A stretch of DNA of 64,000 nt from Halarcobacter sp. (lineage in GTDB: Bacteria; Campylobacterota; Campylobacteria; Campylobacterales; Arcobacteraceae): NCBI GenBank assembly GCA_048571215.1, contig CP182352.1, forward strand, positions 3,550,514-3,614,513, given 5' to 3'. How positions within the stretch are numbered: position 1 is the first letter of the stretch; each line of letters begins with the position of its first letter. The position numbers and the translations under genes are program-made. Positions 13,755 through 40,959 of the stretch are shown one piece after another. The notes under the pieces were generated by a model, which did not search any database, had not been told where the DNA came from, and was given only the letters and a program-made list of their open reading frames with translations.

Positions 13755-15434
13755 ATGCAAATTTTATTTTTAGTTGAAGATAAAGAAAATTTATGGGAAG
13801 AGTCTCGTATTAAATTAGAGCCCCTTTTAAAATATAATAAGTCTTTATCTCAAAATATTTTATTATCAGATTGTGCTTATATTTCTAATGGTTTTTCAAG
13901 TAAATGTTTAGTCGTAAATACAAACGAGATGAAAAAACTTGTAATGTTATCACCCTCTTTGATTGTAAATCTTTATAATAAAAAATCTCAATTGGATATT
14001 GAAGCATATTTTCGTGTCAAATGGCCTAGTGCACAAATAGTTTGTTGGAATAAAAAATATTTAGATAAAAGATATTTTGATAATTTTATAGATGAAAAAG
14101 ATATTATAGAATCTATAGCATATACAACAAATTTAGAAGCACCAAAATTTAAATTACTTAGTAAAACTGTTAAAGATGAAGATTTTATTGGTCTTATTGA
14201 GCAAGCAGTAACTGAGTATTTCTCAGATAGAAACTTTTACAAATCTTTTAAATTACTTCAAACAAGTAAGATTTTAAAAAACCGTAGTATTATCTTTAAA
14301 TTTCAATATAAAATTATAAAAGAAAATGCTGATTATACTATTAAAATCAATTCTGTATCTTTACTTAGTTTTTTTGATTTAGTTGAATTGGATATAAATT
14401 ATGTTTATGAGTATTTTGATGAGGTATTAGATTTTAGATATAAATATTATATAGAACAAGTTAAATTAAGACAATATATAGATGATTTATGTAAAAAGCA
14501 TAATATTAATCTTGAACCCTCAATTTTTAGAACTTTTGTTTTATCAAAAGATGATAAATTAGGATTACATAGACCATATTTTGGTGGAGTTAATGACTTA
14601 GAAGGTATAAAAACAATTAATGATAAACATTTAACGAATGTTATTTTAAAAGAGAAAGGGTTTAAAACAAATATCTCTTATGAATATTCATTAGATGAAC
14701 TCAATAATGAAAAAGTTATTGAAGAGATTCCTTTGGAGTATCCATTGGTTTTAAAACCAACAGATAAGAAAAAAGGATATGGTGTAGTAACAAATATTTT
14801 AAATCCAGAAAAAATGCTTTTTTCAGTTAAGGAACTAATGAAACTAGGAGATATAAAACCTGTTTTAATTGAAGAGTTTTTTGTTGGTATGACATATCGT
14901 GTTTTAGTAGTTGCAGAAGAGGTAATTGCTGTACTTAAATTTATGCCTACTTATATTGTAGGAAATGGAAAATTAACTATTAAAGAGTTGATACTATCAA
15001 AAAATATACTTTTAAGATCTCGTATTCGTATAAATGATGCCTTAGAGTTGAATCTTTTAAATGATGGGTATAATTATAGTACAATATTAGAAAATGGTCA
15101 TAAATATATTCTTAGTCATAACTCTCATGCTTCAATGGGTGGACAAGCTACTAATGTAACTGATATATTTAGTGATGAATTAAAACAAATATCATGTGAA
15201 GTTACTAAAAGTTTAGGTTTAACACATACAGGAATAGATATGAATGTAAATGCTCAAGGAGATTATCGTATATTAGAAGTTAATTGTGCTCCAGCATTAT
15301 CATCACATTTATATCCTAAATATGGAACATCAATTGATACTTATAGCAAAGTTTTAGAAGCTTTTTTTACTCATACTGACTTACAAAGAGTAGAAAATAA
15401 ATATCTTCCCGAAATGTTTAAATATCATAAGTAA
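13755..15434 (+). CDS. ATP-grasp amide ligase, paralog of 11070..12773
   Basis: LKPTDKKKGYGVVTN, IEEFF, YRVLVV, SHNSHASMGG, GIDM, EVNCAP. Same MQILFL start and YHK end as its paralog. Confidence 0.8.
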   Translation: MQILFLVEDKENLWEESRIKLEPLLKYNKSLSQNILLSDCAYISNGFSSKCLVVNTNEMKKLVMLSPSLIVNLYNKKSQLDIEAYFRVKWPSAQIVCWNKKYLDKRYFDNFIDEKDIIESIAYTTNLEAPKFKLLSKTVKDEDFIGLIEQAVTEYFSDRNFYKSFKLLQTSKILKNRSIIFKFQYKIIKENADYTIKINSVSLLSFFDLVELDINYVYEYFDEVLDFRYKYYIEQVKLRQYIDDLCKKHNINLEPSIFRTFVLSKDDKLGLHRPYFGGVNDLEGIKTINDKHLTNVILKEKGFKTNISYEYSLDELNNEKVIEEIPLEYPLVLKPTDKKKGYGVVTNILNPEKMLFSVKELMKLGDIKPVLIEEFFVGMTYRVLVVAEEVIAVLKFMPTYIVGNGKLTIKELILSKNILLRSRIRINDALELNLLNDGYNYSTILENGHKYILSHNSHASMGGQATNVTDIFSDELKQISCEVTKSLGLTHTGIDMNVNAQGDYRILEVNCAPALSSHLYPKYGTSIDTYSKVLEAFFTHTDLQRVENKYLPEMFKYHK

Positions 15435-15468: not shown

Positions 15469-17274
15469 ATGCAAGCACTAATACTAGCAGCAGGTACAGG
15501 GAGTAGATTAGGTAAATATACAAAAGAAAATACTAAATGTATGTTAGAAGTTAATGGTGAAACTTTAATTAATCAAGCTCTAGCTAAATTAAATAATGTA
15601 GGTATAAAAAAACTAATAATGGTTGTTGGGTATAAAAAAGATAATCTAATTGAACATGTAGGAAATAGATATAAAAATATTGAAATTGAATATATAGAAA
15701 ATCCAATTTATAGTACTACAAACAATATTTATTCTTTGTATTTAGCTAAAGATAAGTTAGCGCAAGATGATACTATATTATTAGAAAGTGATTTACTTTT
15801 TGAAGAAAAAATTCTTTTGAATTTAATAAATGATAAAAGAAAGTCATTGGCAGTAGTGGATAAGTATCAGGCTTGGATGGATGGAACAGCTGTTACCTTG
15901 AGTGATAATGATGATATTTTAGGTTTTTATGGTAAAAAAGCATTTCAGTTTAAAAATGTTGATAAATATTATAAAACAGTAAATATTTATAAATTTTCAA
16001 AAGAGTTTTCTTTAGATGTATATATCCCTTTTTTAGAAGCATATTCAAAGGCAATGGGTGACAATGAATATTATGAATCTGTATTAAGAGTAGTTTTAAT
16101 GCTAGAAGACCAAGAGTTAAAAGCTTTAAAACTTAATGGTGAAAAATGGTATGAGATTGATGATGTACAAGATAAAGCAAATGCAGAAGTAATATTCTCT
16201 AAAAATGCAAAAGATAAATTAAAATTGATTCAAAGTAGATATGGGGGTTATTGGAAGTTTCCAGAGTTAAAAGATTTTTGTTATTTAGTTAATCCATATT
16301 TTCCAACTTTTAAAATGCAAGAGGAGATGAAAGCATATTTTTATGAACTTCTTTCTCAATATCCATCAGGGCAATCAACACTAAGACTTCTTGCTGGGAA
16401 AATGTTTAAAGTAGAGGCTGAAAATATTTTAGTTGGAAATGGAGCATCAGAGATAATAAGAGGCTTAGGAAATGCAATTGAGGGAACTTTTGGTTTAGCT
16501 TTTCCAACATTTAATGAATATCCTGAAAGTCTAGGTTATAATAGAATAGTTAAATTTATGCCAAAAAATGACCAATTTTCTTATGATATAAATGATATGA
16601 TGAATCTAGCTAATAATTGTGACAATCTATTATTAATCAATCCTGACAATCCAAGTGGTAATTTTATATCAAAAGATTTTTTATTAGAGCTTGTAGAAAA
16701 ACTTCAAAAAATAAATAAGAATTTAATTTTAGATGAGTCTTTTGTTGATTTTTCAACACAAGGTGAAAAAGAGACTATGATTACACAAAAAATAATAGAT
16801 AGATATCCTAATTTAATAGTTATAAAAAGTATATCAAAAAGTTATGGAGTTCCAGGTATAAGACTTGGAGTTGTAGCAACATCAAATATGAAAATTATGT
16901 CAGCACTAGAAAAAGAAGTAACTATATGGAACATTAATTCTTATGGTGAATTTTTCTTACAAATTATTGGAAAATATAAAAAAGATTATAATGCAAGTTG
17001 TGAAGAGATTTCCATGGAAAGAGATAGATTTTATATTAAACTTCAAGAAATCTCCTATCTAAAAGTTGTCTCTTCTCAGGCGAATTATTTTTTACTACAT
17101 GTAAGTGATAAATTTACAGCAACTGAACTCACTGAGTTATTATTATATAAATATGAAATTTATATAAAAGACTTGACAGGAAAAATTGGTTTTGAAGATA
17201 AACAATGTATACGAATAGCTGTAAGAAGTTATGAAGATAATGAGTTTTTAATTGATAGATTAAAAGAGTTATAA
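15469..17274 (+). CDS. LicC-like cytidylyltransferase fused to a class I/II PLP-dependent (CobD/HisC-like) enzyme
   Basis: N-terminal ALILAAGTGSRL...K, ENPIYSTTNNIYSLYLA and WYEIDD. C-terminal GNGASE, NPDNPSG, DESFVDF, KSISKSYGVPGIRLG and IRIAVR. Confidence 0.85.
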   Translation: MQALILAAGTGSRLGKYTKENTKCMLEVNGETLINQALAKLNNVGIKKLIMVVGYKKDNLIEHVGNRYKNIEIEYIENPIYSTTNNIYSLYLAKDKLAQDDTILLESDLLFEEKILLNLINDKRKSLAVVDKYQAWMDGTAVTLSDNDDILGFYGKKAFQFKNVDKYYKTVNIYKFSKEFSLDVYIPFLEAYSKAMGDNEYYESVLRVVLMLEDQELKALKLNGEKWYEIDDVQDKANAEVIFSKNAKDKLKLIQSRYGGYWKFPELKDFCYLVNPYFPTFKMQEEMKAYFYELLSQYPSGQSTLRLLAGKMFKVEAENILVGNGASEIIRGLGNAIEGTFGLAFPTFNEYPESLGYNRIVKFMPKNDQFSYDINDMMNLANNCDNLLLINPDNPSGNFISKDFLLELVEKLQKINKNLILDESFVDFSTQGEKETMITQKIIDRYPNLIVIKSISKSYGVPGIRLGVVATSNMKIMSALEKEVTIWNINSYGEFFLQIIGKYKKDYNASCEEISMERDRFYIKLQEISYLKVVSSQANYFLLHVSDKFTATELTELLLYKYEIYIKDLTGKIGFEDKQCIRIAVRSYEDNEFLIDRLKEL

Positions 17275-17305: not shown

Positions 17306-18757
17306 ATGGACGATAGAGTGATGTTATTAAACTCAGATGATATAGCACAAATCACTGGTGGGGAATGGTTTAATTTAAATGAAACAATAAAGTTTCATGG
17401 AATTAGAGTGAATATTAAACGTTTAGAAAAAAATGATATATGCTTTTGTACAAATCCTGAACAATGGGGTAAAAAGATTGTTAACTCAGAAAAATCGCTT
17501 CAGAAGATTTTTGAAAGAGGAGCTAGTGCAGCTGTAATTGTAAATAAAGAACTTGTAAATAGTATAAAAAAACCATTATTATTAGTTGAAAATAGTAAAA
17601 AAGCTTTAGAAGATATAGCTTTTTATGTTAGAGATAATATTAATATTCCTAGAGTTTTAGTTACTGGTACAGAAGGTAAAACAGGTTTTAAAAATCAAAT
17701 TTATTCACTATTGTCAAGACAGATTAATGTACATGCCAAACTCGATAGTTCAAATTTAAATGTACCTATAATGTGCTCTTTGGCAAGTTTATCGGAGAAT
17801 GATAAAGTAGAAATTTTAGAAGCATCTGTTGCAGGTCCAAATGTTGGTGTGACTAGAAGCAATATAGTAAAACCAGATATATGTGTAATAACACAAGTTG
17901 GTATTGCCCATATTACTACTCATGGTTCAGTTGATAATATGATTGAAAATAAAGCATCAATAATAGATGCCCTTAAGAAAGATGGTATTTGTATTGTAAA
18001 TGCAGATAGTGATAATTATGATAAATTAAGAGAAGCTATATATAGAAGAAAATATGTTGATATCAAAACCTTTGGAAGTAGTTCTAAATGTAATGCTAGG
18101 ATAATTGAATCTTCATTTGATAAAAAAGAACTTTTATGGAATGTAAAAGCTAATATAGAGGGGATAGAACTAGAGTATAAAGTTCCTTTATTGGGTGATT
18201 ATGTTCCTGTTGCTAGTTTAATACCTTTACTTACGATTCATTATTTAGGCTATGATGTAAAAAAAGCTGCAGCTGATTTTATATATTTTAAAAGTATGGA
18301 TACTATGGGTGGATTGAGTGAAATTGTTTGTAAAGATAAAACATTTAGATTTTTTGATCATTCTCATAGGGGTTCACTTTTAGGTTATAGCTCTGCTTTA
18401 AAAGATTTTGCTTATATGCATCCTAAAAAAAATGGTAAAAAGATTGCAGTTATTGGAAATATGATGAATATAGGAAAAATATCAAAAAAAGCTCATGCTG
18501 ATTTAGTACCTTTAATAGAAGAAGCAAAAGTTGAAAGATTATATACCGTAGGTAAATTTGCAAAACCAATACATGAAAAACTTAAAGATAAATCAATTTT
18601 AATAAATCATGCAGATAAATATCAAGATATAGAAAAACAAATTTTAGCAGATATAGATGATGGCGATGTAATTTTTATGAAAGGTAATCATAGAATTTGG
18701 TTAAAAGAACTTGCTGCAAAGATATATGATATGGGAGAACGACATGCGATCAGATGA
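17306..18757 (+). CDS. MurF-like Mur ligase family protein
   Basis: VTGTEGKTG, PDICVITQVGIAH, IAVIGNMMNIG (cf. MurF VLGDMLELG), DVIFMKG. Confidence 0.8.
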   Translation: MDDRVMLLNSDDIAQITGGEWFNLNETIKFHGIRVNIKRLEKNDICFCTNPEQWGKKIVNSEKSLQKIFERGASAAVIVNKELVNSIKKPLLLVENSKKALEDIAFYVRDNINIPRVLVTGTEGKTGFKNQIYSLLSRQINVHAKLDSSNLNVPIMCSLASLSENDKVEILEASVAGPNVGVTRSNIVKPDICVITQVGIAHITTHGSVDNMIENKASIIDALKKDGICIVNADSDNYDKLREAIYRRKYVDIKTFGSSSKCNARIIESSFDKKELLWNVKANIEGIELEYKVPLLGDYVPVASLIPLLTIHYLGYDVKKAAADFIYFKSMDTMGGLSEIVCKDKTFRFFDHSHRGSLLGYSSALKDFAYMHPKKNGKKIAVIGNMMNIGKISKKAHADLVPLIEEAKVERLYTVGKFAKPIHEKLKDKSILINHADKYQDIEKQILADIDDGDVIFMKGNHRIWLKELAAKIYDMGERHAIR

Positions 18758-19823
18758 TAATGTAGATATTTTCTTTTTAGGAGATACGTATTTTGGCGAA
18801 TGGCATATGAGACTTCGTGGAAGAAAAGGGCAGTCTAATATTTTAGAGGAAAAAGGTTATTTACATTTTGGTAAAAATTTTGAAGAAATACTAAGTGATG
18901 GTGATGAGGTTCTTATGAATTTAGAATGTACTATTACCGAAATAGAACCATCACCTTTGAAAGGTACTGAAAAAAAACATCTTTATTCTGCAAGAGCAGA
19001 AGGAACAATTTCAGCACTTAAAAAGTTAAATATAACCACATGTATTTTAGCAAATAATCATGCGGTAGATTATGGTAAGGCTGGACTTATTGATACTATT
19101 ACAAATTTAGAAGAAGCTGGTATTAAATATATTGGAGGAGGTAGAAATGAAGCAGAAGCAGCGGCTCCACTAATATTTCAAAAAAAACTAGGTGATAAAA
19201 AATTCAAAGCAGCTATAGTATCAACATACAATTATGGTGTAGCATCTGATAGATATGGATTTTATGCAAAGGGTGATATCCCAGGAGTTAATAGAAAAAA
19301 TTTATCAAAAATTACAGAACAAATTAAAAAAATAAAAGCAAAAGACAATGATATAATGTATATTTTGTCTCCCCATTGGGGACCAAATTATGTATGGAGA
19401 ACTTTTACTCAACAAAAACAAGGTGAAGAATTTATAAGATCAGGTGTTGATTTAATAGTTGGACATAGTGCCCATATGATTCAGGAAGTTGAATATTATA
19501 AAGATAGACTTATAATATATAGTATAGGTAATTTTCTTATAAATGGTAATGGTGAATATAAAAGAAGAAGATTGCCACCTTATAGTTTTATAGCAAGATT
19601 GAATGTGCAAAATATTGATAATACTTTTGTTAAAAAGATCTATTTATATCCTATATTTGTTGATAATATGGCAAGTGATTTTACCCCTAGATTTGTAGAT
19701 AAAAAAGAGTTTATTCATGTAAAAGATATATTAAGAAGTCATGAAATAAGTACAGATATATTTGATAATACAGTAATTTTAGGTCAAGATAAGTTTGGAT
19801 ATTTTTTAGAATATGAAATTTAA
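18744..19823 (+). CDS. CapA/PgsA-family calcineurin-like metallophosphoesterase, apparently soluble
   Basis: GDTYFGE, NLEC, LANNHAVDYG, HWG, GHSAH and YSIGNF motifs. ATG at 18744 after GGAG is preferred over the track start 18711. Confidence 0.85.
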   Translation: MRSDDNVDIFFLGDTYFGEWHMRLRGRKGQSNILEEKGYLHFGKNFEEILSDGDEVLMNLECTITEIEPSPLKGTEKKHLYSARAEGTISALKKLNITTCILANNHAVDYGKAGLIDTITNLEEAGIKYIGGGRNEAEAAAPLIFQKKLGDKKFKAAIVSTYNYGVASDRYGFYAKGDIPGVNRKNLSKITEQIKKIKAKDNDIMYILSPHWGPNYVWRTFTQQKQGEEFIRSGVDLIVGHSAHMIQEVEYYKDRLIIYSIGNFLINGNGEYKRRRLPPYSFIARLNVQNIDNTFVKKIYLYPIFVDNMASDFTPRFVDKKEFIHVKDILRSHEISTDIFDNTVILGQDKFGYFLEYEI

Positions 19824-19896: not shown

Positions 19897-22800
19897 ATGA
19901 TTAAGCTAATAATTAGACACACAAATGCTGAGATTGAAGAAAAAGTTGTTGAAGATGGTATGAAGTTTCAACCATTGGAAGGTGAACAATTCTACTTCAT
20001 AGGTTCTGATGGTTATACATTTACTTTATCAGGGAATGAATCTACAGTAAATCTTTCTTTAATGGATGGTAATGAAAGAGTTAGTGTAAGTCTTGATAAC
20101 ATGGCAGATTTAATAAAAGCTAATAATCCTGGAGATGCATTTGCTTTAACTACAGCACTAGGGGTGTCTTCAACTCCGGATGGTGCAGCTGAAATAGAAC
20201 AAGCATTAGCAGACCCAAATTTAGAATCAGCACAAATTATAGATGTATTAAAAGAGAATTTATCAGAAAGTACTGTTGCAGAAAATGATGGTGCAATTAT
20301 TGATAACTTTGGTTCATTGGCAGAAGCTCTTGATGCAGCTGCAGCAGGTGCAATACAGAGTGATCCGACTTTATTTATAGACGAAACTAGAGGGCAAGAA
20401 GAAACTCCAGCAGATACGGAGAGAGGTGAACGAATCGAGACTGATACCGACACGGATACTGATACAGATACAGATACTGACACGGATACAGATACCGATA
20501 CTGATACCGACACAGATACGGACACGGACACAGATACAGACACGGATACTGATACAGACACTGACACAGACACTGATACAGATACTGACACGGATACAGA
20601 TACCGACACAGACACTGATACAGATACTGATACCGACACCGACACTGACACCGATACTGATACAGACACAGATACAGACACGGACACAGACACGGACACA
20701 GACACGGACACAGACACGGATACAGACACGGATACCGATACCGACACTGACACCGATACTGATACAGACACCGATACAGATACTGATACAGACACTGATA
20801 CAGACACTGATACCGACACAGACACGGATACAGATACTGATACCGACACTGACACAGACACTGATACAGATACAGACACCGATACTGATACTGATACCGA
20901 TACTGACACAGACACGGATACAGATACTGATACCGATACTGATACCGACACGGATACAGATACTGATACCGATACTGATACCGACACGGATACTGACACA
21001 GACACCGATACAGACACTGATACAGATACAGACACCGATACTGATACTGATACCGACACAGATACTGACACAGACACGGATACAGATACTGATACCGACA
21101 CGGATACAGATACTGATACTGACACGGATACAGACACCGATACTGATACCGATACCGACACTGATACCGATACAGACACAGATACAGATACTGACACAGA
21201 CACTGATACTGATACAGACACTGATACTGATACTGATACCGACACGGATACAGATACGGACACTGACACAGACACGGACACGGACACTGATACAGATACT
21301 GACACAGACACTGATACCGACACGGATACAGACACGGATACAGATACGGATACAGATACTGATACTGATACAGATACTGACACGGATACAGATACCGACA
21401 CGGACACAGACACTGATACAGATACTGACACGGACACTGATACAGATACTGACACAGACACTGATACAGATACAGATACAGATACCGACACTGACACAGA
21501 TACAGATACAGATACTGATACAGATACAGATACAGATACTGATACAGACACGGATACAGATACTGATACCGACACGGATACAGACACGGATACAGATACA
21601 GACACGGATACAGATACTGATACTGATACAGATACTGACACGGATACAGATACCGACACGGACACAGACACTGATACAGATACTGACACGGATACAGATA
21701 CTGATACCGACACTGACACAGATACAGACACCGATACTGATACAGACTCTGATTCAGACAGTGATACCGATTCGGATTCAGACTCTGACACCGATAGTGA
21801 TAGTGACTCAGACACTGATTCAGATACCGACAGTGATAGTGATTCAGACACAGACTCTGACTCAGACAGTGATACGGATTCTGATAGTGACTCAGATTCT
21901 GATTCGGATAGTGATTCAGACTCAGATAGTGACTCTGATTCAGATACTGACACGGATACGGACACAGATACCGACACAGACACTGATACGGACGCAGACA
22001 CTGACACAGACACTGACACGGATACAGATACAGATACGGACACAGACTCTGACTCAGATAGCGATACCGATAGTGATAGTGACTCAGACACAGACAGTGA
22101 TACAGATTCAGACACAGATTCGGATAGCGACTCAGATACAGACTCTGATTCAGACAGTGATACCGATTCGGATTCAGACTCTGACACCGATAGTGATAGT
22201 GACTCAGACACTGATTCAGATACCGACAGTGATAGTGATTCAGACACAGACTCTGACTCAGACAGTGATACGGATTCTGATAGTGACTCAGATTCTGATT
22301 CGGATAGTGATTCAGACTCAGATAGTGACTCTGATTCAGATACTGACACGGATACGGACACAGATACCGACACAGACACTGATACTGATACGGACACAGA
22401 CACTGATACCGACACAGACACTGATACGGACACAGACACTGATACCGACACAGACACGGATACCGATACTGATACGGACACAGATACGGACACAGACACT
22501 GATACAGACACAGACACTGACACGGATACAGATACAGATACGGACACAGACTCTGACTCAGATAGCGATACCGATAGTGATAGTGACTCAGACACAGACA
22601 GTGATACAGATTCAGACACAGATTCGGATAGCGACTCAGATACAGACTCTGATTCAGACAGTGATACCGATTCGGATTCAGACTCTGACACCGATAGTGA
22701 TAGTGACTCAGACACTGATTCAGATACCGACAGTGATAGTGATTCAGACACAGACTCTGACTCAGACAGTGATACGGATTCTGATAGTGACTCAGATTCT

Positions 22801-25800
22801 GATTCGGATAGTGATTCAGACTCAGATAGTGACTCTGATTCAGATACTGACACGGATACGGACACAGATACCGACACAGACACTGATACTGATACGGACA
22901 CAGACACTGATACCGACACAGACACTGATACTGATACTGATACGGACACAGACACTGATACCGACACAGACACGGATACCGATACTGATACGGACACAGA
23001 CACTGATACGGACACAGACACTGATACAGACACAGACACGGATACAGATACGGACACAGACTCTGACTCAGATAGTGATAGTGACTCAGACACAGACAGT
23101 GATACAGATTCAGACACAGATTCGGATAGCGACTCAGATACAGACTCTGATTCAGACAGTGATACCGATTCGGATTCAGACTCTGACACCGATAGTGATA
23201 GTGACTCAGACACTGATTCAGATACCGACAGTGACAGTGATTCAGACACAGACTCTGACTCAGACAGTGATACGGATTCTGATAGTGACTCAGATTCTGA
23301 TTCGGATAGTGATTCAGACTCAGATAGTGACTCTGATTCAGATACTGACACGGATACGGACACAGATACCGACACAGACACTGATACTGATACTGATACG
23401 GACACAGACACTGATACCGACACAGACACTGATACTGATACTGATACGGACACAGACACTGATACCGACACAGACACGGATACCGATACTGATACGGACA
23501 CAGACACTGATACGGACACAGACACTGATACAGACACAGACACGGATACAGATACGGACACAGACTCTGACTCAGATAGTGATAGTGACTCAGACACAGA
23601 CAGTGATACAGATTCAGACACAGATTCGGATAGCGACTCAGATACAGACTCTGATTCAGACAGTGATACCGATTCGGATTCAGACTCTGACACCGATAGT
23701 GATAGTGACTCAGACACTGATTCAGATACCGACAGTGATAGTGATTCAGACACAGACTCTGACTCAGACAGTGATACGGATTCTGATAGTGACTCAGATT
23801 CTGATTCGGATAGTGATTCAGACTCAGATAGTGACTCTGATTCAGATACTGACACGGATACGGACACAGATACCGACACAGACACTGATACTGATACGGA
23901 CACAGATACTGATACTGATACGGACACAGACACTGATACCGACACAGACACTGATACCGACACAGACACTGATACCGACACAGACACGGATACCGATACT
24001 GATACGGACACAGATACGGACACAGACACTGATACAGACACAGACACTGACACGGATACAGATACAGATACAGATACGGACACAGACTCTGACTCAGATA
24101 GCGATACCGATAGTGATAGTGACTCAGACACAGACAGTGATACAGATTCAGACACAGATTCGGATAGCGACTCAGATACAGACTCTGATTCAGACAGTGA
24201 TACCGATTCGGATTCAGACTCTGACACCGATAGTGATAGTGACTCAGACACTGATTCAGATACCGACAGTGACAGTGATTCAGACACAGACTCTGACTCA
24301 GACAGTGATACGGATTCTGATAGTGACTCAGATTCTGATTCGGATAGTGATTCAGACTCAGATAGTGACTCTGATTCAGATACTGACACGGATACGGACA
24401 CAGATACCGACACAGACACTGATACTGATACTGATACTGATACGGACACAGACACTGATACCGACACAGACACTGATACTGATACTGATACGGACACAGA
24501 CACTGATACCGACACAGACACGGATACCGATACTGATACGGACACAGACACTGATACGGACACAGACACTGATACAGACACAGACACGGATACAGATACG
24601 GACACAGACTCTGACTCAGATAGTGATAGTGACTCAGACACAGACAGTGATACAGATTCAGACACAGATTCGGATAGCGACTCAGATACAGACTCTGATT
24701 CAGACAGTGATACCGATTCGGATTCAGACTCTGACACCGATAGTGATAGTGACTCAGACACTGATTCAGATACCGACAGTGATAGTGATTCAGACACAGA
24801 CTCTGACTCAGACAGTGATACGGATTCTGATAGTGACTCAGATTCTGATTCGGATAGTGATTCAGACTCAGATAGTGACTCTGATTCAGATACTGACACG
24901 GATACGGACACAGATACCGACACAGACACTGATACTGATACGGACACAGATACTGATACTGATACGGACACAGACACTGATACCGACACAGACACTGATA
25001 CCGACACAGACACTGATACGGACACAGACACTGATACCGACACAGACACGGATACCGATACTGATACGGACACAGATACGGACACAGACACTGATACAGA
25101 CACAGACACTGACACGGATACAGATACAGATACGGACACAGACTCTGACTCAGATAGCGATACCGATAGTGATAGTGACTCAGACACAGACAGTGATACA
25201 GATTCAGACACAGATTCGGATAGCGACTCAGATACAGACTCTGATTCAGACAGTGATACCGATTCGGATTCAGACTCTGACACCGATAGTGATAGTGACT
25301 CAGACACTGATTCAGATACCGACAGTGATAGTGATTCAGACACAGACTCTGACTCAGACAGTGATACGGATTCTGATAGTGACTCAGATTCTGATTCGGA
25401 TAGTGATTCAGACTCAGATAGTGACTCTGATTCAGATACTGACACGGATACGGACACAGATACCGACACAGACACTGATACTGATACGGACACAGACACT
25501 GATACCGACACAGACACTGATACTGATACTGATACGGACACAGACACTGATACCGACACAGACACGGATACCGATACTGATACGGACACAGACACTGATA
25601 CGGACACAGACACTGATACAGACACAGACACGGATACAGATACGGACACAGACTCTGACTCAGATAGTGATAGTGACTCAGACACAGACAGTGATACAGA
25701 TTCAGACACAGATTCGGATAGCGACTCAGATACAGACTCTGATTCAGACAGTGATACCGATTCGGATTCAGACTCTGACACCGATAGTGATAGTGACTCA

Positions 25801-27588
25801 GACACTGATTCAGATACCGACAGTGACAGTGATTCAGACACAGACTCTGACTCAGACAGTGATACGGATTCTGATACCGATTCAGATTCAGATAGTGACA
25901 CCGATTCTGATAGCGATAGTGACACAGATTCAGATTGTGATACAGATGTTGATGCAGATAAACCAATTGCAGATATTGAAGTTGAGTATGAAAAAACAGT
26001 TACCGTAAATGAAGTTTGTTCTACTTCACAAAATCTAGGTAATTTAGCTGCTTATTTAGATGGTATGAATAATGTAAATGCAAATGAAGTTGTTGATTTA
26101 GCAAAAGATCAAAATGGTAACCCACAACAAGATCAATACAACTTAGAATTGACTTCATTTGGAGATGGAGATTTAGCATTATATGATAATGAATCTAATC
26201 AAAATGAAACTAGAGATATCAATGATATTGATTTAAATGATGTTACACCATTTGATCCATCAAATGCAGAAGTAGTAAATAACACCATAAATCATACATA
26301 CAATATGACATCAAATGAAGTTATTTTTGAAGGTGATATTGTTCAAAATGGTAATGTAATAGGAACATCAGACAATGATGTGATTATTGTAAAAGGTGAG
26401 GTTCAAGGTGGTTCAAATGTTAATGCAGGTGCTGGAAATGACCTTATTGCAATAGTAGGAAATATTGGAGAAAATCAACCAGCAATTGATGGGGATAGTG
26501 GTACAGACATACTATATCTAAGTAAACCTGCATCTAATTATGAGTTTTTAGATATCCACTTCCATGACAATTTAGATGGACATATTTTAGATAAAGAGAC
26601 TCAAAGTGTATTAACATTTAATAACATAGAAGGAATTGCCTTTGGTGATGGTTCTGGGGTAAATTGTAAAGTAAATACATCAACAAGCTATCAATACAAT
26701 GTAAGTATAAGTGCTGCATTAACTGATATTGATGGAAGTGAAACTTTATCTGTAGCAATATCTGGAGTGCCAAATGGTGCTACACTATCAAGTGATACCT
26801 ATACATTAATTGATAATGGAAATGGAAATTGGACAGTTGAAGTACCAAATGGAGATGTATCTATAGTTGATGATATTACTATGAATGTTCCATCAGATAT
26901 AGGAGATTTTAACCTTGAAATAACAGCAAGAGCAACTGAAATCAATGATAATGATGGTACTGATTATGCAGAAACAACAGATAGTGATTTTGTAACTGAT
27001 GATATCGATCCAGATACAGAAATCAATAAATTTGACTTAGTAGGAAATGTAACTACTGGTTCAGGAGATGATACAATTAATGTGTCAGATGATATATTCT
27101 TAGCTAATGTTGATACTGGAGCAGGAGATGATACAATCAATGTAGGAGATGATATAGGATTATTTACTTCAATAGATACCGGAGCAGGAGATGATACAAT
27201 TAATATTGGTGACAATATTAGTTATTCAGCTCAAATTGATATGGGTGATGGTATTGATACCCTAAGTTTAGATGATGATATTGATTTATCTGATATAGCA
27301 AAAAATGTTGATAATGTTGAAATAATTGATTTGGATAATGATGAAGACCAAGATCTAGAAATAGATTTAGATTCAATTATCGATTTAACTGATGATGATA
27401 ATGATTTAGTTGTTATTGGTGATAATGGTGACAAAATTGACTTTAATGATTCTGGTTGGGAAAAAGGCGATAGCACAAAAACTGTTGATGGACAAGATGG
27501 AGAGTTTACTGAATACACAAATACAAACAATCCAAATGTATCAATTTTAATTGATAATGACATTGACGTAGATGATGATGACATTTAA
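19897..27588 (+). CDS. Giant T1SS-secreted RTX-type surface protein/adhesin with about 920 Asp-Thr/Asp-Ser dipeptides
   Basis: No Sec signal. N-terminal ~180 aa includes EALDAAAAG. (DT)n/(DS)n tract; Ig/cadherin-like [10 protein letters not shown]...[12 protein letters not shown]-like GAGNDLI, GSGDDTI, GAGDDTI x2, GDGIDTL; acidic T1SS-type C-terminus; adjacent T1SS genes. Confidence 0.88.
20443..25956 (+). repeat. Coding hexamer repeat GAY-ACN/TCN/AGY with ~0.4-0.55 kb higher-order units
   Basis: Pure Asp-Thr from 20443 to 21744 (about 217 units), then alternating DS-rich and DT-rich blocks. A shared junction recurs at 21943, 22339, 22843, 23341, 23845, 24379, 24889 and 25435. Confidence 0.95.
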
Positions 27589-29129: not shown

Positions 29130-29271
29130 AAAGTATTATACCAAAAATGTATAAATAAATTACTAAAATTTATTTTAGTCGCTAAAAAGTTACTATAAAA
29201 TAATTTTTTAAGTAACTTGTAAACTTAATTAAAGTATTATGTTTTTACAATCAAACAATATGGATAAAACT

Positions 29272-31080
29272 ATGAAAACAATAATCGAAAGAATTCTCAT
29301 TTTAAGTCTCTTTGTAACATATGCTAGTTCAACTTCTTTAAAAGATTCAGTTATAAGTACTTTAGGTAAAAACCCTGATGTATTATCTGAAAAATTAAAT
29401 AGGGATGCTTATCAAAAGTATGTTGATGAAGAAAAAGGTGATTATTATCCAACACTAGATTTTCAAGGATATGTTGAAAAATCTAGAACAAGAAATGATA
29501 GAGATAATGTTGCTACAGATCCAAGCAGTGCAAAAAAAGATGGATGGCATGCTGCATTAACTTTTGAACAGATCATTTATGATGGTGGACAAACACCAAG
29601 TCAAGTAGAACAGTATAAACATACTTATCTATCAAATAAGTACAGAAGTTTAATTAGAGTTGATGAAATTGTAAGGTCAACTATTGATAATTATCTTAAT
29701 GCAGTTAAATATCAAGAGTTAATTGATCTTTCTCAATTAAATCTACAGGTACATGAAGATTATTTAGTGATTGCACAAGAGAAAGAAAATATAAGTGGAG
29801 AAATCTTAGAGACTTATCAAGTAAACTCTAAAAAACATTATGTGATAGACAGATATTTGGAACAAAAAATAAATGAAGATGAGGCAAGAAATATTTTTGC
29901 AGAAAAGTCAGGTATTGAAAATCCAGGAAATATTTGTAGACCTACAATTAATGAAGCTTTTATACCTAGTACTTTAGAAGAAGCAATAGAAAAAGCAGTT
30001 AGAAATAGTCCAAAAATATTAAGAGCTATTGAAGATATTAAGGAGCAAAGGGAAAATGTAGTACAAGCTAATGCTACATATCTACCTACTTTAAGATTCC
30101 AATGGGTAGGAAGTTTAGATGATGATTTATCAAATGCAGAAAATGGTAGACAAGATATATCTAGATTTAGAATTATTATGGATTGGAATCTATTTGAAGG
30201 TGGAAAAAATAAAATTGCAAAAGAAAGAGAAGTTCTTTTTTTACAAGAAAAACAAAAAATTCTTGATACAACAGTAAATCAAGTTATTCAAGAGGTTACC
30301 ACAAGTTATAAAAAGTATTTTTCTTTTAAAGAAAAAATAGAAAATTATAAAAAATATGTTAAAGATAACTATTATATTAAAGAGGTATATTTTAAACAAT
30401 TAACAGATGGTACTAGAACTTTTATTGATATACTAGATGCAGAATCAGAATATTATAGATCATCATTAGATTTAATAGATTTTGAATATCAGTTATATGG
30501 ATATTATTATGATATTTTAAATCATAGTGGTCTATTGAGTACAAGCATTTTGATGTCTGAAAATCAAGTATGTAAAGAATTCAAATTATCAAAATATGAA
30601 AGTAGATTTAAACAAAAAGTAAAAGATAATAATAGTGAATTAAATGACTTAGATTTACTCCAAGAGCTTGGTCAAGCACAAAGTAAAACAAAAACTGAGG
30701 AAGGAAATACAAAAGAAGTAGATATGGAGATTGATAATTTAATCAATGGTACCTCTGTAGGGGAGAACAATGAAACTAAAAATCCAGATGAAAATGCAGT
30801 AAAAAATTTACCTACAGGAAAGTATACTATTAAGCTTGCGACTTTTGATCAAAACTATGATATTAATTCATTTATAGAAAAAAATAAACTAAATCCAGAT
30901 GATGTATATGCATACAGTACTAACAATAATATAAATGTTATTTATGGGCACTTTAATAAGCTTGGTGATGCTAAAGCACTATTAAGCAGTTTAGATAAAA
31001 GTTTAATTAATAGTAATGTATATATTGATATTCTTGAAAAACATAGAAAACTTTATCAAAAATATAAAACAAATAATTAG
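29272..31080 (+). CDS. TolC-family T1SS outer membrane protein (LapE-like) with C-terminal SPOR-like domain
   Basis: Signal peptide; YYPTLD, YLPTL, WNLFEGG and GTRTFIDILDAE TolC motifs; tail YTIKLATF...VIYGHF. Start uncertain (29239, 29260 or 29272). Confidence 0.85.
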   Translation: MKTIIERILILSLFVTYASSTSLKDSVISTLGKNPDVLSEKLNRDAYQKYVDEEKGDYYPTLDFQGYVEKSRTRNDRDNVATDPSSAKKDGWHAALTFEQIIYDGGQTPSQVEQYKHTYLSNKYRSLIRVDEIVRSTIDNYLNAVKYQELIDLSQLNLQVHEDYLVIAQEKENISGEILETYQVNSKKHYVIDRYLEQKINEDEARNIFAEKSGIENPGNICRPTINEAFIPSTLEEAIEKAVRNSPKILRAIEDIKEQRENVVQANATYLPTLRFQWVGSLDDDLSNAENGRQDISRFRIIMDWNLFEGGKNKIAKEREVLFLQEKQKILDTTVNQVIQEVTTSYKKYFSFKEKIENYKKYVKDNYYIKEVYFKQLTDGTRTFIDILDAESEYYRSSLDLIDFEYQLYGYYYDILNHSGLLSTSILMSENQVCKEFKLSKYESRFKQKVKDNNSELNDLDLLQELGQAQSKTKTEEGNTKEVDMEIDNLINGTSVGENNETKNPDENAVKNLPTGKYTIKLATFDQNYDINSFIEKNKLNPDDVYAYSTNNNINVIYGHFNKLGDAKALLSSLDKSLINSNVYIDILEKHRKLYQKYKTNN

Positions 31081-31091
31081 TTAGTGAAGAT

Positions 31092-33221
31092 ATGGAAGAA
31101 TTAGAAAAAACAGTTAATAGAAAAGTAGATACTCTTTTAGAGTCTCTATTTTTTATTGCTAAATATTATCAAAGAGCGACTTCTAAAGAGTCATTACTTA
31201 ATGGCTTGTCAATTTTTGGAGATGTAATGGATGTTGATAATTTTATTCAAGCATCAAAAAAGGTTGCATTAATCTCAAAATTTGTTAAAAGAGATAATAT
31301 TGAAGATATAAATAAATTAACATTTCCAGCTGTAATTTTCACAACAAAATACGACTCTATGATTTTACTTGACTACGATGAAGAAGGGAATAGTGCAAAT
31401 TTGATTATTCCTGAATTGAGTTTAGGTGAAACTACTATGCCATTAGATGAACTTAATTCACTTTATACAGGCAGGGTAATTATTATTAAGCCTGCATATA
31501 ATTTTGAAAATCGTTCTTCAAGAGAAGTATCTATCTTAAATCCAAAAAAATGGTTTTGGGATACAATGAAGAAAAGTAAAGAGTTCTACGCAAGAGTTAT
31601 TGTTGCAACTATTTTTATCAATATCTTTGTGATAGCTTTACCTTTATTTATAATGAATGTCTATGATAGAATTTTACCAAACAATGCTATTGAATCCTTA
31701 TGGGCATTAGCAATTGGTGTATTTGTTGTAATGATATTTGATTTTATTCTTAAAATTATTAGGTCGTATTACATTGGTAAAGCTTCAAAAAAAGCAGATA
31801 TCATTATGTCAAATAAAATATTTGATCATCTTTTAAATTTAAGGCTTGATTCTAGACCTTCATCTACTGGTATGTTTGTTAATAGATTACAATCTTTTGA
31901 ATCTATAAAAGAGTTTTTTACAACAGCAACAATTACTACTTTAGTGGATATTCCATTTTTATTTATTTTTGTAGCAATTATTTTTTATATTGGTGGACCT
32001 TTAGGATGGATTCCTGTAATTACAATAATTATAGCTCTAATTAGTTCTTTTTTTATGCAAAAGATAATTAAAAAAAATGTTACAAATACAGTTAATGAGG
32101 AACAATTAAAACAAACAACATTAAATGAAACTGTAACAGGATTAGAAATAATAAAAAGTGTTCGCGGTCAAAATAGAATGAAAACACACTGGGATAAATC
32201 ATTAAGTCAAACAGCATATTATGGAGAAAAAACACAACTTTTCTCACAAGTTGCAAGTGGCCTTACCGATTTTATAACAAAGTTTTCAAATGTAGTTATT
32301 ATTGTATTTGGAGTTTTTTTAGCTTCAAGTGGTGATATGACGATGGGTGCAATCGTAGCTTCAATGATGTTAAACAGAAGAGCAGTTGCTCCTGCATCAA
32401 AGATTGTGAATCTAGTTATAAAATATGATAGAGCAATGATTGCATTAAAAAATATTGATGACATTATGAGTTTAGATGTTGAAAAAGATCATAAAGTATA
32501 TTTAAGTAGACCCCATTTAATTGGAGACATAGAGTTTCAAGATGTAAGTTTTTCTTATAAAAAACAAAATTATGAAGTATTAAAAAATATAAATTTAAAG
32601 ATAAATCAAGGTGAAAAAGTAGCGATTTTAGGAAAAATTGGTTCAGGAAAGTCAACACTAATTAAGATGATTCAAAATCTTTATGTTCCAACAAAAGGTT
32701 CAATTTTAATTGATAATACAGATGTTAGACAAATTGACCCAGTAGATTTAAGAAAGGCTATAGGTGTTGTTCCTCAAGAATCATTTTTATTTATGGGAAG
32801 TGTAAAAGATAATATTACAATAGGAGATCCTTTTGCAACAGATGAGGAGATATTAAAAGCTTCAAAAATTGCTGGAGTTCATGATTTCTTAGGTAAACAT
32901 GAAGCGGGTTATGATTTTCTTGTAGGTGAAAGAGGAGAAGGATTAAGTGGTGGTGAAATTCAATCTATTACTTTAGCAAGAGCACTTGTAAGTAATCCAG
33001 ATTTTATGATATTTGATGAGCCTACAAACTCAATGGATAAACAAACAGAAAGAGATTTTTTAAAAAAATTAAAACTTATTTTAGATAAACAAACTGTGAT
33101 TATTGTTACCCATAAGTTATCTTTATTGTCTTTGGTTGATAGGGTAATAGTTTTAGATAATGGTAAAATAGTAGCTGATGGTCCAAAAGAAAAAGTATTT
33201 TCTAAAGCGAATAAAGAGTAG
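31092..33221 (+). CDS. T1SS permease/ATPase (LapB/LssB-like) with C39-like N-terminal domain
   Basis: PLFIMNVYDRILPN, Walker A GKIGSGKS, LSGG signature, FDEPT. Confidence 0.92.
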   Translation: MEELEKTVNRKVDTLLESLFFIAKYYQRATSKESLLNGLSIFGDVMDVDNFIQASKKVALISKFVKRDNIEDINKLTFPAVIFTTKYDSMILLDYDEEGNSANLIIPELSLGETTMPLDELNSLYTGRVIIIKPAYNFENRSSREVSILNPKKWFWDTMKKSKEFYARVIVATIFINIFVIALPLFIMNVYDRILPNNAIESLWALAIGVFVVMIFDFILKIIRSYYIGKASKKADIIMSNKIFDHLLNLRLDSRPSSTGMFVNRLQSFESIKEFFTTATITTLVDIPFLFIFVAIIFYIGGPLGWIPVITIIIALISSFFMQKIIKKNVTNTVNEEQLKQTTLNETVTGLEIIKSVRGQNRMKTHWDKSLSQTAYYGEKTQLFSQVASGLTDFITKFSNVVIIVFGVFLASSGDMTMGAIVASMMLNRRAVAPASKIVNLVIKYDRAMIALKNIDDIMSLDVEKDHKVYLSRPHLIGDIEFQDVSFSYKKQNYEVLKNINLKINQGEKVAILGKIGSGKSTLIKMIQNLYVPTKGSILIDNTDVRQIDPVDLRKAIGVVPQESFLFMGSVKDNITIGDPFATDEEILKASKIAGVHDFLGKHEAGYDFLVGERGEGLSGGEIQSITLARALVSNPDFMIFDEPTNSMDKQTERDFLKKLKLILDKQTVIIVTHKLSLLSLVDRVIVLDNGKIVADGPKEKVFSKANKE

Positions 33222-33223
33222 TT

Positions 33224-34567
33224 ATGAAAAAGAATAATGATATAAATTTTGTGCATAACCTTTATGGTCAAGCAAATGAAAAAGCTTCATCAAAAATAGA
33301 TTTTTTATTTATATTTATTTTATGCTTTTTAGTAGCTGCCATTGTTTGGTCAAGTATAGCTCAAATAGATGAATTAGCAAGGGGTCAAGGTAAAGTAATC
33401 CCTTCAAGTAAAATCCAAACTATTCAATCTTTAGATGGAGGATTAGTTGAAGAGATTTTAGTTAAATCTGGTGATCAAGTAAAAAAAGGGCAACCTCTTA
33501 TGAAAATTGATACAACAAGATTTCTAGCTTCTTTAGAGGAAAATCAAGAGAGTTACTATCAATGGCTAGCTATGAGAGTTAGACTTGAAAAAGAATCTGT
33601 TGTTGATATTGATAAGAAAATTGAAAAGTTAGTTTTCCCTGATGATATTAAAAAAATTGCAAAAGATTATATTAAATCAGAAACATTTTTATATATTAAT
33701 AGGGTTAATGAGTTGAAAAGTTCTATAAATGTTTTTGATTCACAACTAAATCAAAGATATCAAGAGATAAAAGAGATCAATCAAGAGATTTCTAAATTAA
33801 AAACTAGATTAAAACTTGTAACTATTGAGAGAAAAACTATAAAAGATTTAGTTAGAACAGGGGTTAAGTCAAAAGTTGAATTAATTGCAATTGAAAAAGA
33901 ATATCAACAAATTGTCGGAGATTTAAAATCAGCAGAATTATCAATTCCTAAATCTAGATATGCAATAAATGAGATAAAAAACAAAAGATTAGAGAGGATA
34001 ACTCAATTTAGAACAGAAGCATCAAAAGAGTTACAAAGAATTTCTGTTGAAATTAAAAAAGCAGAAGCAAGAATGATTTCAGCTACAGATAAAGTTAATA
34101 AAACGGTTATAAAATCAAGTGTTAATGGAATTGTAAAAGAGATTTATATGAATACAATTGGTGGAGTTGTTCAATCAGGAGCAAGTTTATTAGATATTAT
34201 TCCTAATAGTGACAATCTACTTGTTGAAGCAAAAATAGACCCTAAAGATATTGCTTTTATAAGTCCCATGCAAAAAGCTATAGTTAAAATTTCAGCTTAT
34301 GATTATTCAATATATGGAGGTCTAGATGGAAAAATTGTTGAGATATCTGCAGATAGTATCATTGATAAAGAGAGTAAAGATGGTAAAAGTTACTATAAAA
34401 TTATAGTTCAAACTGAAAAGAATTATTTGGAGAAAAATGGAAATAAATTGCCAATTATTCCTGGGATGATAGCCAATGTTGATGTAATTACAGGTAAGAA
34501 AACTATTATGGATTACATCTTAAAACCAATACTTAAAATAAAACAAAATTCATTACATGAAAAATAA
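33224..34567 (+). CDS. HlyD-family T1SS membrane fusion protein (LapC-like)
   Basis: N-terminal TM; ARGQGKVIPS, AYDYSIYGGLDG, PGM...GKKTIMDYILKP. Confidence 0.92.
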   Translation: MKKNNDINFVHNLYGQANEKASSKIDFLFIFILCFLVAAIVWSSIAQIDELARGQGKVIPSSKIQTIQSLDGGLVEEILVKSGDQVKKGQPLMKIDTTRFLASLEENQESYYQWLAMRVRLEKESVVDIDKKIEKLVFPDDIKKIAKDYIKSETFLYINRVNELKSSINVFDSQLNQRYQEIKEINQEISKLKTRLKLVTIERKTIKDLVRTGVKSKVELIAIEKEYQQIVGDLKSAELSIPKSRYAINEIKNKRLERITQFRTEASKELQRISVEIKKAEARMISATDKVNKTVIKSSVNGIVKEIYMNTIGGVVQSGASLLDIIPNSDNLLVEAKIDPKDIAFISPMQKAIVKISAYDYSIYGGLDGKIVEISADSIIDKESKDGKSYYKIIVQTEKNYLEKNGNKLPIIPGMIANVDVITGKKTIMDYILKPILKIKQNSLHEK

Positions 34568-34577
34568 AGGAAATAAC

Positions 34578-39625: not shown

Positions 39626-39653
39626 GTAAAATTACTCTTTTTTTTAAATTTTA

Positions 39654-39677: not shown

Positions 39678-39694
39678 TGATAAAAAGGAATGGG

Positions 39695-40948: not shown

Positions 40949-40959
40949 AAGGGAAAAAA

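Follow-up and report, generated by a model that had tools for sequence, protein, structure and literature searches.

The 64,000-nucleotide stretch of Halarcobacter sp. DNA analysed here (the window) encodes a protein in which every second residue is aspartate for 1840 residues, beside a set of enzyme genes. This raises the question of what such a tract is for, and whether the neighbouring enzymes act on it. We propose, with a probability of about 0.6, that this protein is secreted to the cell surface and that the adjacent enzymes covalently rework its tract before type I export. We infer every step of this proposed modification from gene context and fold.

Features of the locus, with the evidence for each assignment
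Feature	Position	Strand	Evidence
Ankyrin-OmpA lipoprotein, first cassette gene	962..2293	+	
AMMECR1-like domain + (alpha/alpha)6 barrel; predicted Asp-tract modifier	2309..4141	+	Structure model, co-occurrence
Ser/Thr kinase + Sel1 domains fused to barrel	4166..5377	+	PF00069 E 2e-39
HExxH putative metalloprotease, MXAN_6640-like	5374..6339	+	NF045524 E 3e-15, below cut-off
MurF-like ligase fused to tRNA-dependent aminoacyl-transferase-like domain (PF09924)	6339..8741	+	
MurF-like ligase	8770..10218	+	Pfam/NCBIfam scans
ATP-grasp ligase, cyanophycin-synthetase/GshB-like	11070..12773	+	TIGR02068 E 5e-41, below cut-off
AnkX-like Fic domain; predicted CDP-ethanolamine:Ser/Thr phosphotransferase	12798..13748	+	AnkX the only PDB matches, E 2e-27
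Second ATP-grasp ligase, cyanophycin-synthetase/GshB-like	13755..15434	+	
LicC/PntC-like cytidylyltransferase + PLP phospho-amino-acid decarboxylase fusion; predicted donor supply	15469..17274	+	
MurF-like ligase	17306..18757	+	Pfam/NCBIfam scans
CapA/PGA_cap metalloprotein, MslH-related (MslH: peptide epimerase)	18711..19823	+	PF09587 E 3e-51
Acidic T1SS substrate, 2563 aa, tract carrier	19897..27588	+	ORF; HK-RR-TolC-ABC-HlyD synteny in relatives
N-terminal domain, 182 aa, AAAAG at residues 147-151; likely divergent retention module	19897..20442	+	
(Asp-Thr/Ser)920 tract: (DT)217, then ~500-550-bp macro-repeats of DT/DS blocks	20443..25962	+	
C-terminal region: four RTX-like GxGxD nonapeptides + acidic tail	25963..27588	+	
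Type I secretion system: TolC-family, LssB-type ABC, HlyD	29239..34567	+	NCBIfam

An unbroken run of 920 Asp-Thr/Ser units

The tract-bearing ORF has a single, terminal stop. Its strict (D-X) run covers residues 183-2022, the final Asp codon ending at 25959, which bears out an earlier sequence-only reading of Asp at every second residue behind an opening of about 217 DT units. The X positions hold Thr 591 times, Ser 324 times, Ala twice, and Cys, Val and Lys once each. At the DNA level, the part 3' of the (DT)217 block consists of 8-9 copies of the macro-repeat, and the longest exact duplicate inside the tract is 892 bp. The tract uses 21 hexamer types, and the Asp codons are split GAT 503 to GAC 417, compared with 43786 to 4893 across the long ORFs of the genome; the tract DNA is thus synonymously scrambled while the peptide stays fixed. 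A hexamer is followed by an identical one in just 6% of steps, and simple slippage was therefore rejected as the origin of the tract. Three long antisense or frame-shifted ORFs across the tract were also rejected as genes, since the hexamer repeat contains no stops. The genome holds no second such tract (it is present in one of 180 20-kb windows).

The length of the tract is real, and the possibility of an assembly expansion, raised in the sequence-only reading, was checked by read depth. In run X1 the ratios of contig depth to flank depth were 7.0, 8.0 and 6.2 against 7.1, 8.0 and 6.2 copies in the assembly, and in run X2 they were 9.6 and 9.4 against 8.3 and 7.9, both runs being from one study that is possibly the source of the assembly. 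This comparison covers the tract outside 20437-21872 (skipped as repeat), and leaves aside runs with small word shares as well as X6, whose tract depth came from short repeat contigs. Five relatives carry tracts of 696 (G100), at least 780 (G093), 1480 (G087), 1496 (G103) and 2480 (G105) residues that use different codons, sharing 0-4 of 352 36-mers with the window tract. RNA run X5 gave contigs at 20139-20436, 22027-22409 and 26760-27489 and in the cassette, with DNA carry-over possible and no silent-region control, and is therefore not counted as evidence of expression.

A predicted substrate of type I secretion

The assignment to type I secretion made earlier holds up. The ABC and HlyD genes, 3.5 kb downstream of the tract gene, both pass their cut-offs (LssB-type ABC, TIGR03375 823 bits, cut-off 693; HlyD, TIGR01843 377, cut-off 209), the four nonapeptides are in place and the synteny is conserved; the TolC-family protein scores 164 with TIGR01844, below the cut-off of 225. 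The ORF has no hydrophobic leader (no Sec signal). Judged by its exporter context and nonapeptides, it would fall among the predicted T1SS-secreted RTX-type proteins. The Pfam RTX model gave no score on the C-terminal region, which has no Pfam match above cut-off, and neither the N- nor the C-terminal part has an NCBIfam match.

Homologues of the N-terminal domain occur in 91 of the 184 genomes of the family, and A147, A149 and A150 are invariant (17 rows). The domain found no Pfam or NCBIfam match, NF033682 included (hhalign probability 13.7), and no PDB profile match under E 0.4; its model (pLDDT 72.8) had no Foldseek match under E 0.001, the best VIA PDB match reaching Z 4.8. We take the AAAAG to be a di-alanine LapG site following a likely, divergent retention module. 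Four PF06035 (LapG) matches in the genome are over the cut-off, and two neighbouring genes resemble LapD, below cut-off and over partial sequence. The AAAG near residue 150, the LssB-type ABC, the GxGxD repeats and these LapG- and LapD-like genes are shared with RTX adhesins of the LapA/MpIBP type, and in several homologous systems the carrier is a true NF033682 protein. Unlike them, the window protein has no NF033682 match at its N-terminus and a dipeptide tract as its extender; we know of no modifying cassette for LapA.

The tract travels with a barrel enzyme

In the 184-genome family the tract is found in 8 genomes, all within the 10 that have the gene for the AMMECR1-like/barrel enzyme. 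A second family (251 genomes) has 16 pattern-positive genomes, 15 of them among the 19 with a barrel gene; the sixteenth is a GACAGA microsatellite. The barrel occurs without a tract in G115 and G175, and in 4 of the 19 genomes of the second family; most of the tract-free cases are fragmented assemblies, which does not account for every one of them. Over many phyla, 24 of 79 barrel loci have a tract within 10 kb, and 50 further barrel genomes divide into 26 with a tract elsewhere and 24 with no tract match. Five minimal loci (L098, L110, L112, L114, L127) consist of barrel and tract protein, no Mur, ATP-grasp or Fic gene being found there. In a distant barrel subfamily 8 of 80 loci have a poly-Asp protein (D8 or longer) alongside, as against none of the 79 close-set loci, a count made without a matched metagenome background.

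The carriers are exported proteins that are unrelated to each other and have nothing but the tract in common; they are of T1SS retention-module, two-partner-secretion, lipoprotein-like and porin-like types. Their X residues are T 2119, S 490, N 81, A 32 and G 16, and Asp is fixed. In a tree of the adhesin (29 rows) long tracts appear in three places, interleaved with orthologues that have neither tract nor barrel. G085, assembled as one contig, has Ig-like repeats and a cassette reduced to a truncated Ank-OmpA remnant, and G088 has a 17-unit tract and keeps the barrel but no Fic. The sequence-only reading had the tract standing instead of Ig domains; it does replace the Ig-like repeats of orthologues, although G103 and G105 have both. 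Since Asp tracts adjoin one enzyme family in many phyla, the tract is likely a decorated scaffold rather than a bare acidic spacer, and on balance we regard it as a portable modification tag. No description of the tract-barrel pairing, nor of an AMMECR1-barrel fusion linked to Asp tracts, was found in a literature sample that was mostly open-access and at abstract level (for the pairing, supplements aside).

The structure model of the barrel enzyme (pLDDT 81.6) matches 1zq7/1vaj/1wsc in Foldseek with its N-terminal domain and AGE epimerases and GH76 with its barrel. The N-terminal matches (1WSC/1VAJ/1ZQ7, E 2e-5 to 2e-4) place that domain in the AMMECR1 fold, and PF01871 is found on 12-13% of members in related clusters. 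The AMMECR1 family is reported to have an RGChG motif (PMC2034487); unlike in that family, the motif with its catalytic Cys is absent from the conserved columns of the barrel-enzyme alignments. The barrel superposes on cellobiose 2-epimerase with VIA Z 28.7 (rmsd 3.3, 340 aligned) and on GH76 with Z 27.9, a tie; it shares the fold of these sugar-acting enzymes at just 9-13% identity, and a PDB sequence search gave one weak match (E 0.89). Near-invariant polar residues over 111 rows are R268, H269, E401, D453, R520, E522, R587, D589 and H593, with H269 kept in 106 of 111 and H593 in 103 of 103. AGE-family epimerases use a catalytic His pair.

Some barrels have an N-terminal hydrophobic segment. 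At their loci HlyD is present in 0 of 18 against 24 of 61 for the others, and an ATP/CTP-dependent accessory gene in 0 of 18 against 39 of 61; the loci include kin and are not independent, and Fisher values overstate these differences. L128, L133 and L151 fit this compartment pattern poorly. With neither HlyD nor an ATP/CTP-dependent accessory gene at those 18 loci, it seems that the barrel can work without a cofactor from the cytoplasm.

A variable cassette of transferases and ligases

The cassette extends over 17.5 kb upstream of the tract gene, and its ankyrin-OmpA lipoprotein also heads the cassette in G087, G100, G103 and G105. The Fic protein (316 aa) keeps the CMP-binding and catalytic residues of Legionella AnkX, with AnkX Y41, F107, H229, D233, N235, R237 and D265 present as Y34, F98, H220, D224, N226, R228 and D256; Y34, H220, D224, N226 and R228 are invariant (7 rows). 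Unlike AnkX, Fic proteins of this type are stand-alone or Mur-fused, have no ankyrin tail (113 bits against the full-length AnkX cut-off of 1400), come with their own donor pathway, predicted to supply CDP-ethanolamine or CMP-aminoethylphosphonate, and probably act on a protein of their own cell. The cytidylyltransferase-decarboxylase matches 6OUX (E 2e-51), 6PD1 (E 2e-14) and 1JYK (E 4e-12), and all 12 cytidylyltransferase loci also have Fic. In G053 and L128 an aminoethylphosphonate pathway takes the place of the donor gene alongside the same Fic. Fic is missing from 10 of the 15 tract-plus-barrel genomes of the second family, and is an accessory to the tract-barrel pair.

The Mur, ATP-grasp and CapA content also varies between loci. 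The ATP-grasp and Mur-like ligases and the CapA protein recall cyanophycin synthetase CphA1 and Cap/Pgs systems. CphA couples an amino acid to the side-chain carboxylate of Asp. Unlike in CphA1, the window domains lie on separate genes, each scoring far under its family cut-off (141 bits against 850 for cyanophycin synthetase), and the Asp backbone is ribosomal; no CapB/CapC pair was identified. Graspetide chemistry makes Asp-Thr ester cross-links, and this was rejected for the tract: the ATP-grasps are CphA/GshB-like and missing from most loci. A Ser-specific role of the PF09924 fusion fits six genomes of the family and was rejected as contradicted by L081, L109 and L128. The CapA protein matches MslH, a lasso-peptide epimerase of the CapA family (8GQ9, E 3e-7, two short stretches), and D25, H117/D120 and H255 line up with both of its His/Asp dyads; the match is weak, the dyads may be general to CapA proteins, and MslH acts on one C-terminal Trp, unlike the modification proposed here. 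The kinase retains its Lys, Glu, HLDLKPAN, DWG and APE motifs. The HExxH protein has no PDB match, and neither it nor the hydrolase-containing ORF of G100 resembles a poly-aspartate hydrolase.

Proposed modification of the tract

The AMMECR1-like/barrel enzyme quite probably recognises Asp tracts and alters their Asp residues. As to the chemistry, cofactor-free L-to-D epimerisation or alpha-to-beta isomerisation is our tentative preference. In a second step, which we find rather more likely than its opposite, the decarboxylase-cytidylyltransferase would make CDP-ethanolamine or a closely related aminoalkyl-phosphate donor, from which Fic would move phosphoethanolamine onto the Thr/Ser hydroxyls. 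MurF-like and ATP-grasp ligases might then, with somewhat less than even odds, add amino acids to Asp side-chain carboxylates or to the amines brought in by Fic. This would yield a brush that resists proteases and is partly zwitterionic, with a contour length of up to about 660 nm; it would keep the C-terminal domains at a distance from the cell and coat the cell surface. The proposal in full is doubtful as a whole: that tracts of Asp, whether (D-T/S)n or poly-D, serve as a tag for the barrel family in many bacterial phyla, that the barrel would invert or isomerise Asp at hundreds of positions in a ribosomal protein (giving an alternating D/L or iso-Asp backbone), and that Fic and ligases would build on it a sub-micron, gene-templated bottle-brush anchored at the cell surface.

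A barrel that only binds the tract (as chaperone or export helper) or hydrolyses it, with any covalent decoration left to the accessory enzymes alone and any epimerisation to CapA, is improbable. The tie of GH76-type hydrolase folds with epimerases, the MslH dyads kept in CapA and the export help that polyanions may need would suit it; yet near-invariant polar residues are typical of an active site, cytoplasmic cleavage would presumably leave the C-terminal export signal and the anchor on different fragments, and many loci have no CapA.

The sequence-only reading had seen a bare polyanion binding Ca2+ or mineral. In that form it is unsupported, because it fails to explain why tract and enzyme cassette are gained and lost together. 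A fuller version is likewise improbable; in it the tract is a bare polyanionic, Ca2+-binding spacer, and the cassette, inherited with it on one island, produces a polymer of its own such as a poly-gamma-glutamate-like capsule. It draws on the likeness of the CapA, Mur-like and ATP-grasp genes to amino-acid-polymer synthesis, on the variable cassette, and on the acidic, Glu/Asp/Thr-rich stalks of G055 and G058, which have no cassette. Against it, the minimal loci pair barrel and tract without those ligases or Fic, the pairing persists over unrelated carriers and export routes, and AnkX-type Fic is reported to act on protein Ser (PMC8605245).

O-glycosylation of the Thr/Ser residues, with the barrel as an epimerase, transglycosylase or hydrolase acting on those glycans, stands at long odds. 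The fold neighbours of the barrel are carbohydrate enzymes, the homologue P0125 is fused to a GT4 domain, and there are a weak PMT-like neighbour at L112 (E 0.0045) and a GT2 neighbour at L127; the window cassette, however, has no glycosyltransferase (a Pfam scan of the 46 window proteins found none of any family, Sdg-like or other), and Ala/Gly tracts (L133) and hydroxyl-free poly-Asp tracts are also paired with the barrel family. An assembly expansion or a silent gene deserves almost no weight, the exact duplicates of up to 892 bp, the lack of a read contig spanning the tract and the weak RNA evidence being set against matching depth ratios, long tracts (1480-2480 residues) in the single-contig genomes G087, G103 and G105, and a frame and Asp register unbroken for 920 units despite scrambled codons.

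Significance

The SD repeats of Sdr/Clf adhesins, to which the tract had been likened, are an apt analogy: both are Asp-containing dipeptide-repeat stalks on surface proteins, with scrambled codons. The better lesson from them is that dedicated enzymes modify them, SdgA/SdgB being reported to glycosylate the SD repeats of staphylococcal adhesins (ClfA, Sdr) and to shield them from proteolysis (PMC3794999). The window protein is not an SDR protein as defined by Ser-Asp repeat, sortase anchor and MSCRAMM domains; it has a Thr-dominated tract of 920 units on a Gram-negative T1SS carrier, its partners are the AMMECR1-like/barrel enzyme, Fic and ligases, and its tract moves between unrelated carriers. 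The logic thus has a precedent in SdgA/SdgB, and a barrel that proved to be a glycan enzyme would make the finding a variant of that kind.

If our reading is right, this would be a new protein-modification system in which a simple repeat serves as a tag rewritten at hundreds of sites per chain. It would give the AMMECR1-containing enzyme family its first testable substrate, and the two-gene minimal version of barrel and tract makes testing cheap. Aminoethylphosphonate pathways, whose downstream steps have been described as enigmatic (PMC6697681), would in part gain a protein acceptor, and AnkX-type transferases would have a housekeeping role and a possible origin.

The Asp-X tract and its length

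The carrier (stalk protein) is 2563 aa long, and from residue 183 to 2022 Asp occupies alternate positions without interruption, in agreement with the sequence-only reading. The tract opens with (DT)217 and continues in 8-9 copies of a macro-repeat unit of ~500-550 bp; its X position is Thr 591 times, Ser 324 times and another residue five times. Its codons are scrambled: the DNA comprises 21 hexamer types, only 6% of neighbouring hexamer steps are identical, and Asp is encoded by GAT and GAC at ~1:1, versus 9:1 genome-wide. Searching the whole genome, a single 3.6-Mb contig of 28.5% GC, we found no second tract of this type. A protein neighbouring the carrier has its nearest named homologues in Halarcobacter and Poseidonibacter. 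Three antisense stop-free frames over the tract (1859-1970 codons) were rejected as genes, being a by-product of the hexamer repeat.

The sequence-only reading had raised assembly expansion as an alternative, which was not borne out. In read run X1, three repeat contigs lie at 7.0, 8.0 and 6.2x flank depth for 7.1, 8.0 and 6.2 assembly copies, and in X2 the ratios are 9.6 and 9.4 versus 8.3 and 7.9 copies; both runs belong to one study, possibly the source of the assembly itself, no read contig bridges the whole tract, and the comparison excludes the pure DT part. The length is independently supported because orthologues carry long tracts of their own, of 696, at least 780, 1480, 1496 and 2480 residues (three in single-contig genomes), which have almost no 36-mers in common with that of the window. 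The tract length is genuine, and the Asp stalk is real and conserved.

Export context and relatives of the carrier

The stretch 1.7-7 kb downstream of the carrier is occupied by a TolC/ABC/HlyD operon, with the order preserved in relatives and an ABC gene that scores above the LssB-type cut-off. The carrier has an N-terminal AAAAG motif and four C-terminal GxGxD nonapeptides, and the genome encodes LapG-like and LapD-like proteins; the N-terminal domain matched neither the LapA retention model nor solved folds. Homologues of this domain occur in 91 of the 184 genomes of the surrounding family. The 29 relatives' loci translated past the N-terminus mostly have Ig-like repeats, with irregular acidic repeats in 2, long DT runs or their start in 6, and a short DT run in G088 only. 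The genome has three further T1SS-type ABC genes and other giant ORFs.

A cassette upstream of the carrier

Immediately upstream, on the same strand, we found a 17.5-kb cassette that the sequence-only reading had missed. Variants of it are present in long-tract relatives and absent from orthologues without a tract. A housekeeping Mur gene sits elsewhere in the genome, so the three cassette ligases look extra to the housekeeping set.

Features of the window and of related loci
Feature	Position	Remark
Ank-OmpA lipoprotein	962-2293	cassette
611-aa domain (barrel) fused to Ser/Thr kinase	2309-4141 (barrel gene)	cassette
HExxH protein		cassette
MurF-like ligases		cassette; three
Mur-PF09924 fusion	6339-8741	one of the three MurF-like ligases; also in L037, L039, L054
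ATP-grasps, CphA/GshB-like		cassette; two
Bax-inhibitor-1-like membrane protein	10237-10992	within cassette
Fic protein	12798-13748	cassette
Cytidylyltransferase-decarboxylase fusion		cassette
CapA	18711-19823	cassette
Carrier	19897-27588 (+)	
Antisense frames	20013-26008 (-)	rejected
Lipoprotein paralogue	34557-35915	139 bits on ZorB2 model, under cut-off
ArsR, ArsB, LMW phosphatase/ArsC-like, ArsP	38964-42316	arsenic-resistance type; downstream of transketolase
Giant ORFs, G000:C1	3195876-3233090; 1094090-1115998; 549975-570341	12,405; 7,303; 6,789 codons
AvrB/AvrC-like ORF, L072	3792-4274 (-)	161 aa
Grasp-Fic-Grasp block, L081	5812-19772	Sulfurimonas
DT tract, then GSKD tetrapeptide repeat, L084	13983-16793	
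In-frame TAG codons, Pirellulales barrel genes	L123:11330; L141:1227, 2061	one position common to both

The two ankyrin-OmpA lipoproteins, ~36% identical, flank the cassette and T1SS operon. The Mur-PF09924 fusion accompanies Ser-containing tracts (G000, the window's genome, and G087, G093, G100) and is absent with Thr-only tracts (G103, G105), a rule that breaks down in the 10-kb loci examined from outside the family. The L081 block is much like the window's, with a similar Bax-inhibitor-1-like gene, and stands beside an unrelated retention-module carrier; this resemblance suggests that cassette blocks have been transferred.

Co-occurrence of tract and barrel

Of the 184 family genomes, 10 carry the barrel domain. 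The 8 that show the (D[S/T])10 pattern are all among them; the other two (G115, G175) are fragmented and also lack an adhesin N-terminus match. In a second family, whose sample contains its centre, picked because domain-bearing, the domain occurs in 19 of 251 genomes, the pattern in 16 and both in 15, the sixteenth pattern being a GACAGA microsatellite. On a tree of adhesin N-termini (29 rows, one truncated row omitted), long tracts appear in three places among orthologues without tract or barrel. Related genomes are not independent, and we put weight on this pattern of presence rather than on Fisher values. G088 retains the barrel with a 17-unit tract and no Fic; in G085, a truncated Ank-OmpA is all that is left of the cassette. 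Between barrel gene and adhesin in G088, the L072 ORF matches the C-terminal third of the AvrB/AvrC family (PF05394, E 1e-22) and is possibly a remnant of a different Fic-like transferase.

More widely, runs of (D[STAG])6 or more lie within 10 kb of the barrel in 24 of 79 loci from GTDB genomes. Five of the remaining 55 genomes had been covered previously; among the 50 searched, the pattern occurs elsewhere in 26, some with low counts or large genomes, and is absent from 24. Among the carriers in the 15 tract loci examined one gene at a time are retention-module T1SS and filamentous-haemagglutinin-type proteins and, judged from sequence, one lipoprotein-like protein, one that resembles a porin and one whose tail is PEP-CTERM-like; the tract is their sole common feature. 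Loci of the 18 barrels with an N-terminal hydrophobic segment, a class set by our own threshold, hold neither HlyD (versus 24/61 others) nor genes for Fic, Mur, ATP-grasp, CapA or cytidylyltransferase (versus 39/61); L128, L133 and L151 fit this pattern poorly. The in-frame TAG codons of the Pirellulales barrel genes may reflect either read-through of TAG or a break common to both genes.

A test at the boundary of the family, on 80 metagenome loci from a distant barrel subfamily, yielded neither a DX tract nor a Fic. Neighbouring proteins carry D8 or longer in 8 of these 80, versus none of the 79 close loci and none in the window genome; a pattern widened post hoc gives 11, nine of them on the strand of the barrel ORF and at most 300 bp away from it, all counts standing without matched background. 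Asp is therefore the constant element.

Candidate enzymes

In the model of the barrel protein (pLDDT 81.6), an AMMECR1-like domain at the N-terminus is joined to an (alpha/alpha)6 barrel whose predicted fold is nearest to AGE-family epimerases and GH76; AMMECR1 itself is called uncharacterised in PMC2034487. Conserved polar residues include R268, H269, E401, D453, R520, E522, R587, D589 and H593. From the constancy of Asp, the variation in X, the poly-Asp partners and the lack of an obvious cofactor requirement, we infer that the barrel is a putative Asp epimerase or isomerase. CapA, which retains the dyads of MslH (residues as in the portion of PMC10406935 consulted), is by its sequence a rival epimerase candidate.

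AnkX is the only PDB match of Fic, and the seven residues named for it in part of PMC8605245 are identical at the mapped positions. Across the 184 family genomes Fic is found in 8, namely G175 and seven with long tracts; among the 251 genomes of the second family it is found in 6, of which five have tracts. Fic is therefore accessory. Its donor gene matches 6OUX, which we take to be a phosphoserine decarboxylase, PntC-aminotransferase 6PD1 and LicC. The LicC product is CDP-choline and that of PntC is CMP-aminoethylphosphonate (PMC6697681, in part). Fic is present in 12 of 12 loci holding this cytidylyltransferase; G053 and L128 have a PEP mutase and decarboxylase in place of the donor gene.

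Discussion

We propose, with a probability of about 0.6, that the Asp tract of the stalk is modified by a system not described before, of putative chemistry. The nearest precedent is SdgA/SdgB, which act on SD repeats (PMC3794999, excerpt) but differ from the enzymes of the window's cassette; we found no published description of the Asp-tract/barrel pairing within the literature searched. The orthologous adhesins of G058 and G055 (L011 for the latter, L010 for the former) have irregular acidic stalks of EDTT/DENT-type repeats and no cassette. They offer a natural comparison, a polyanion stalk left unmodified.
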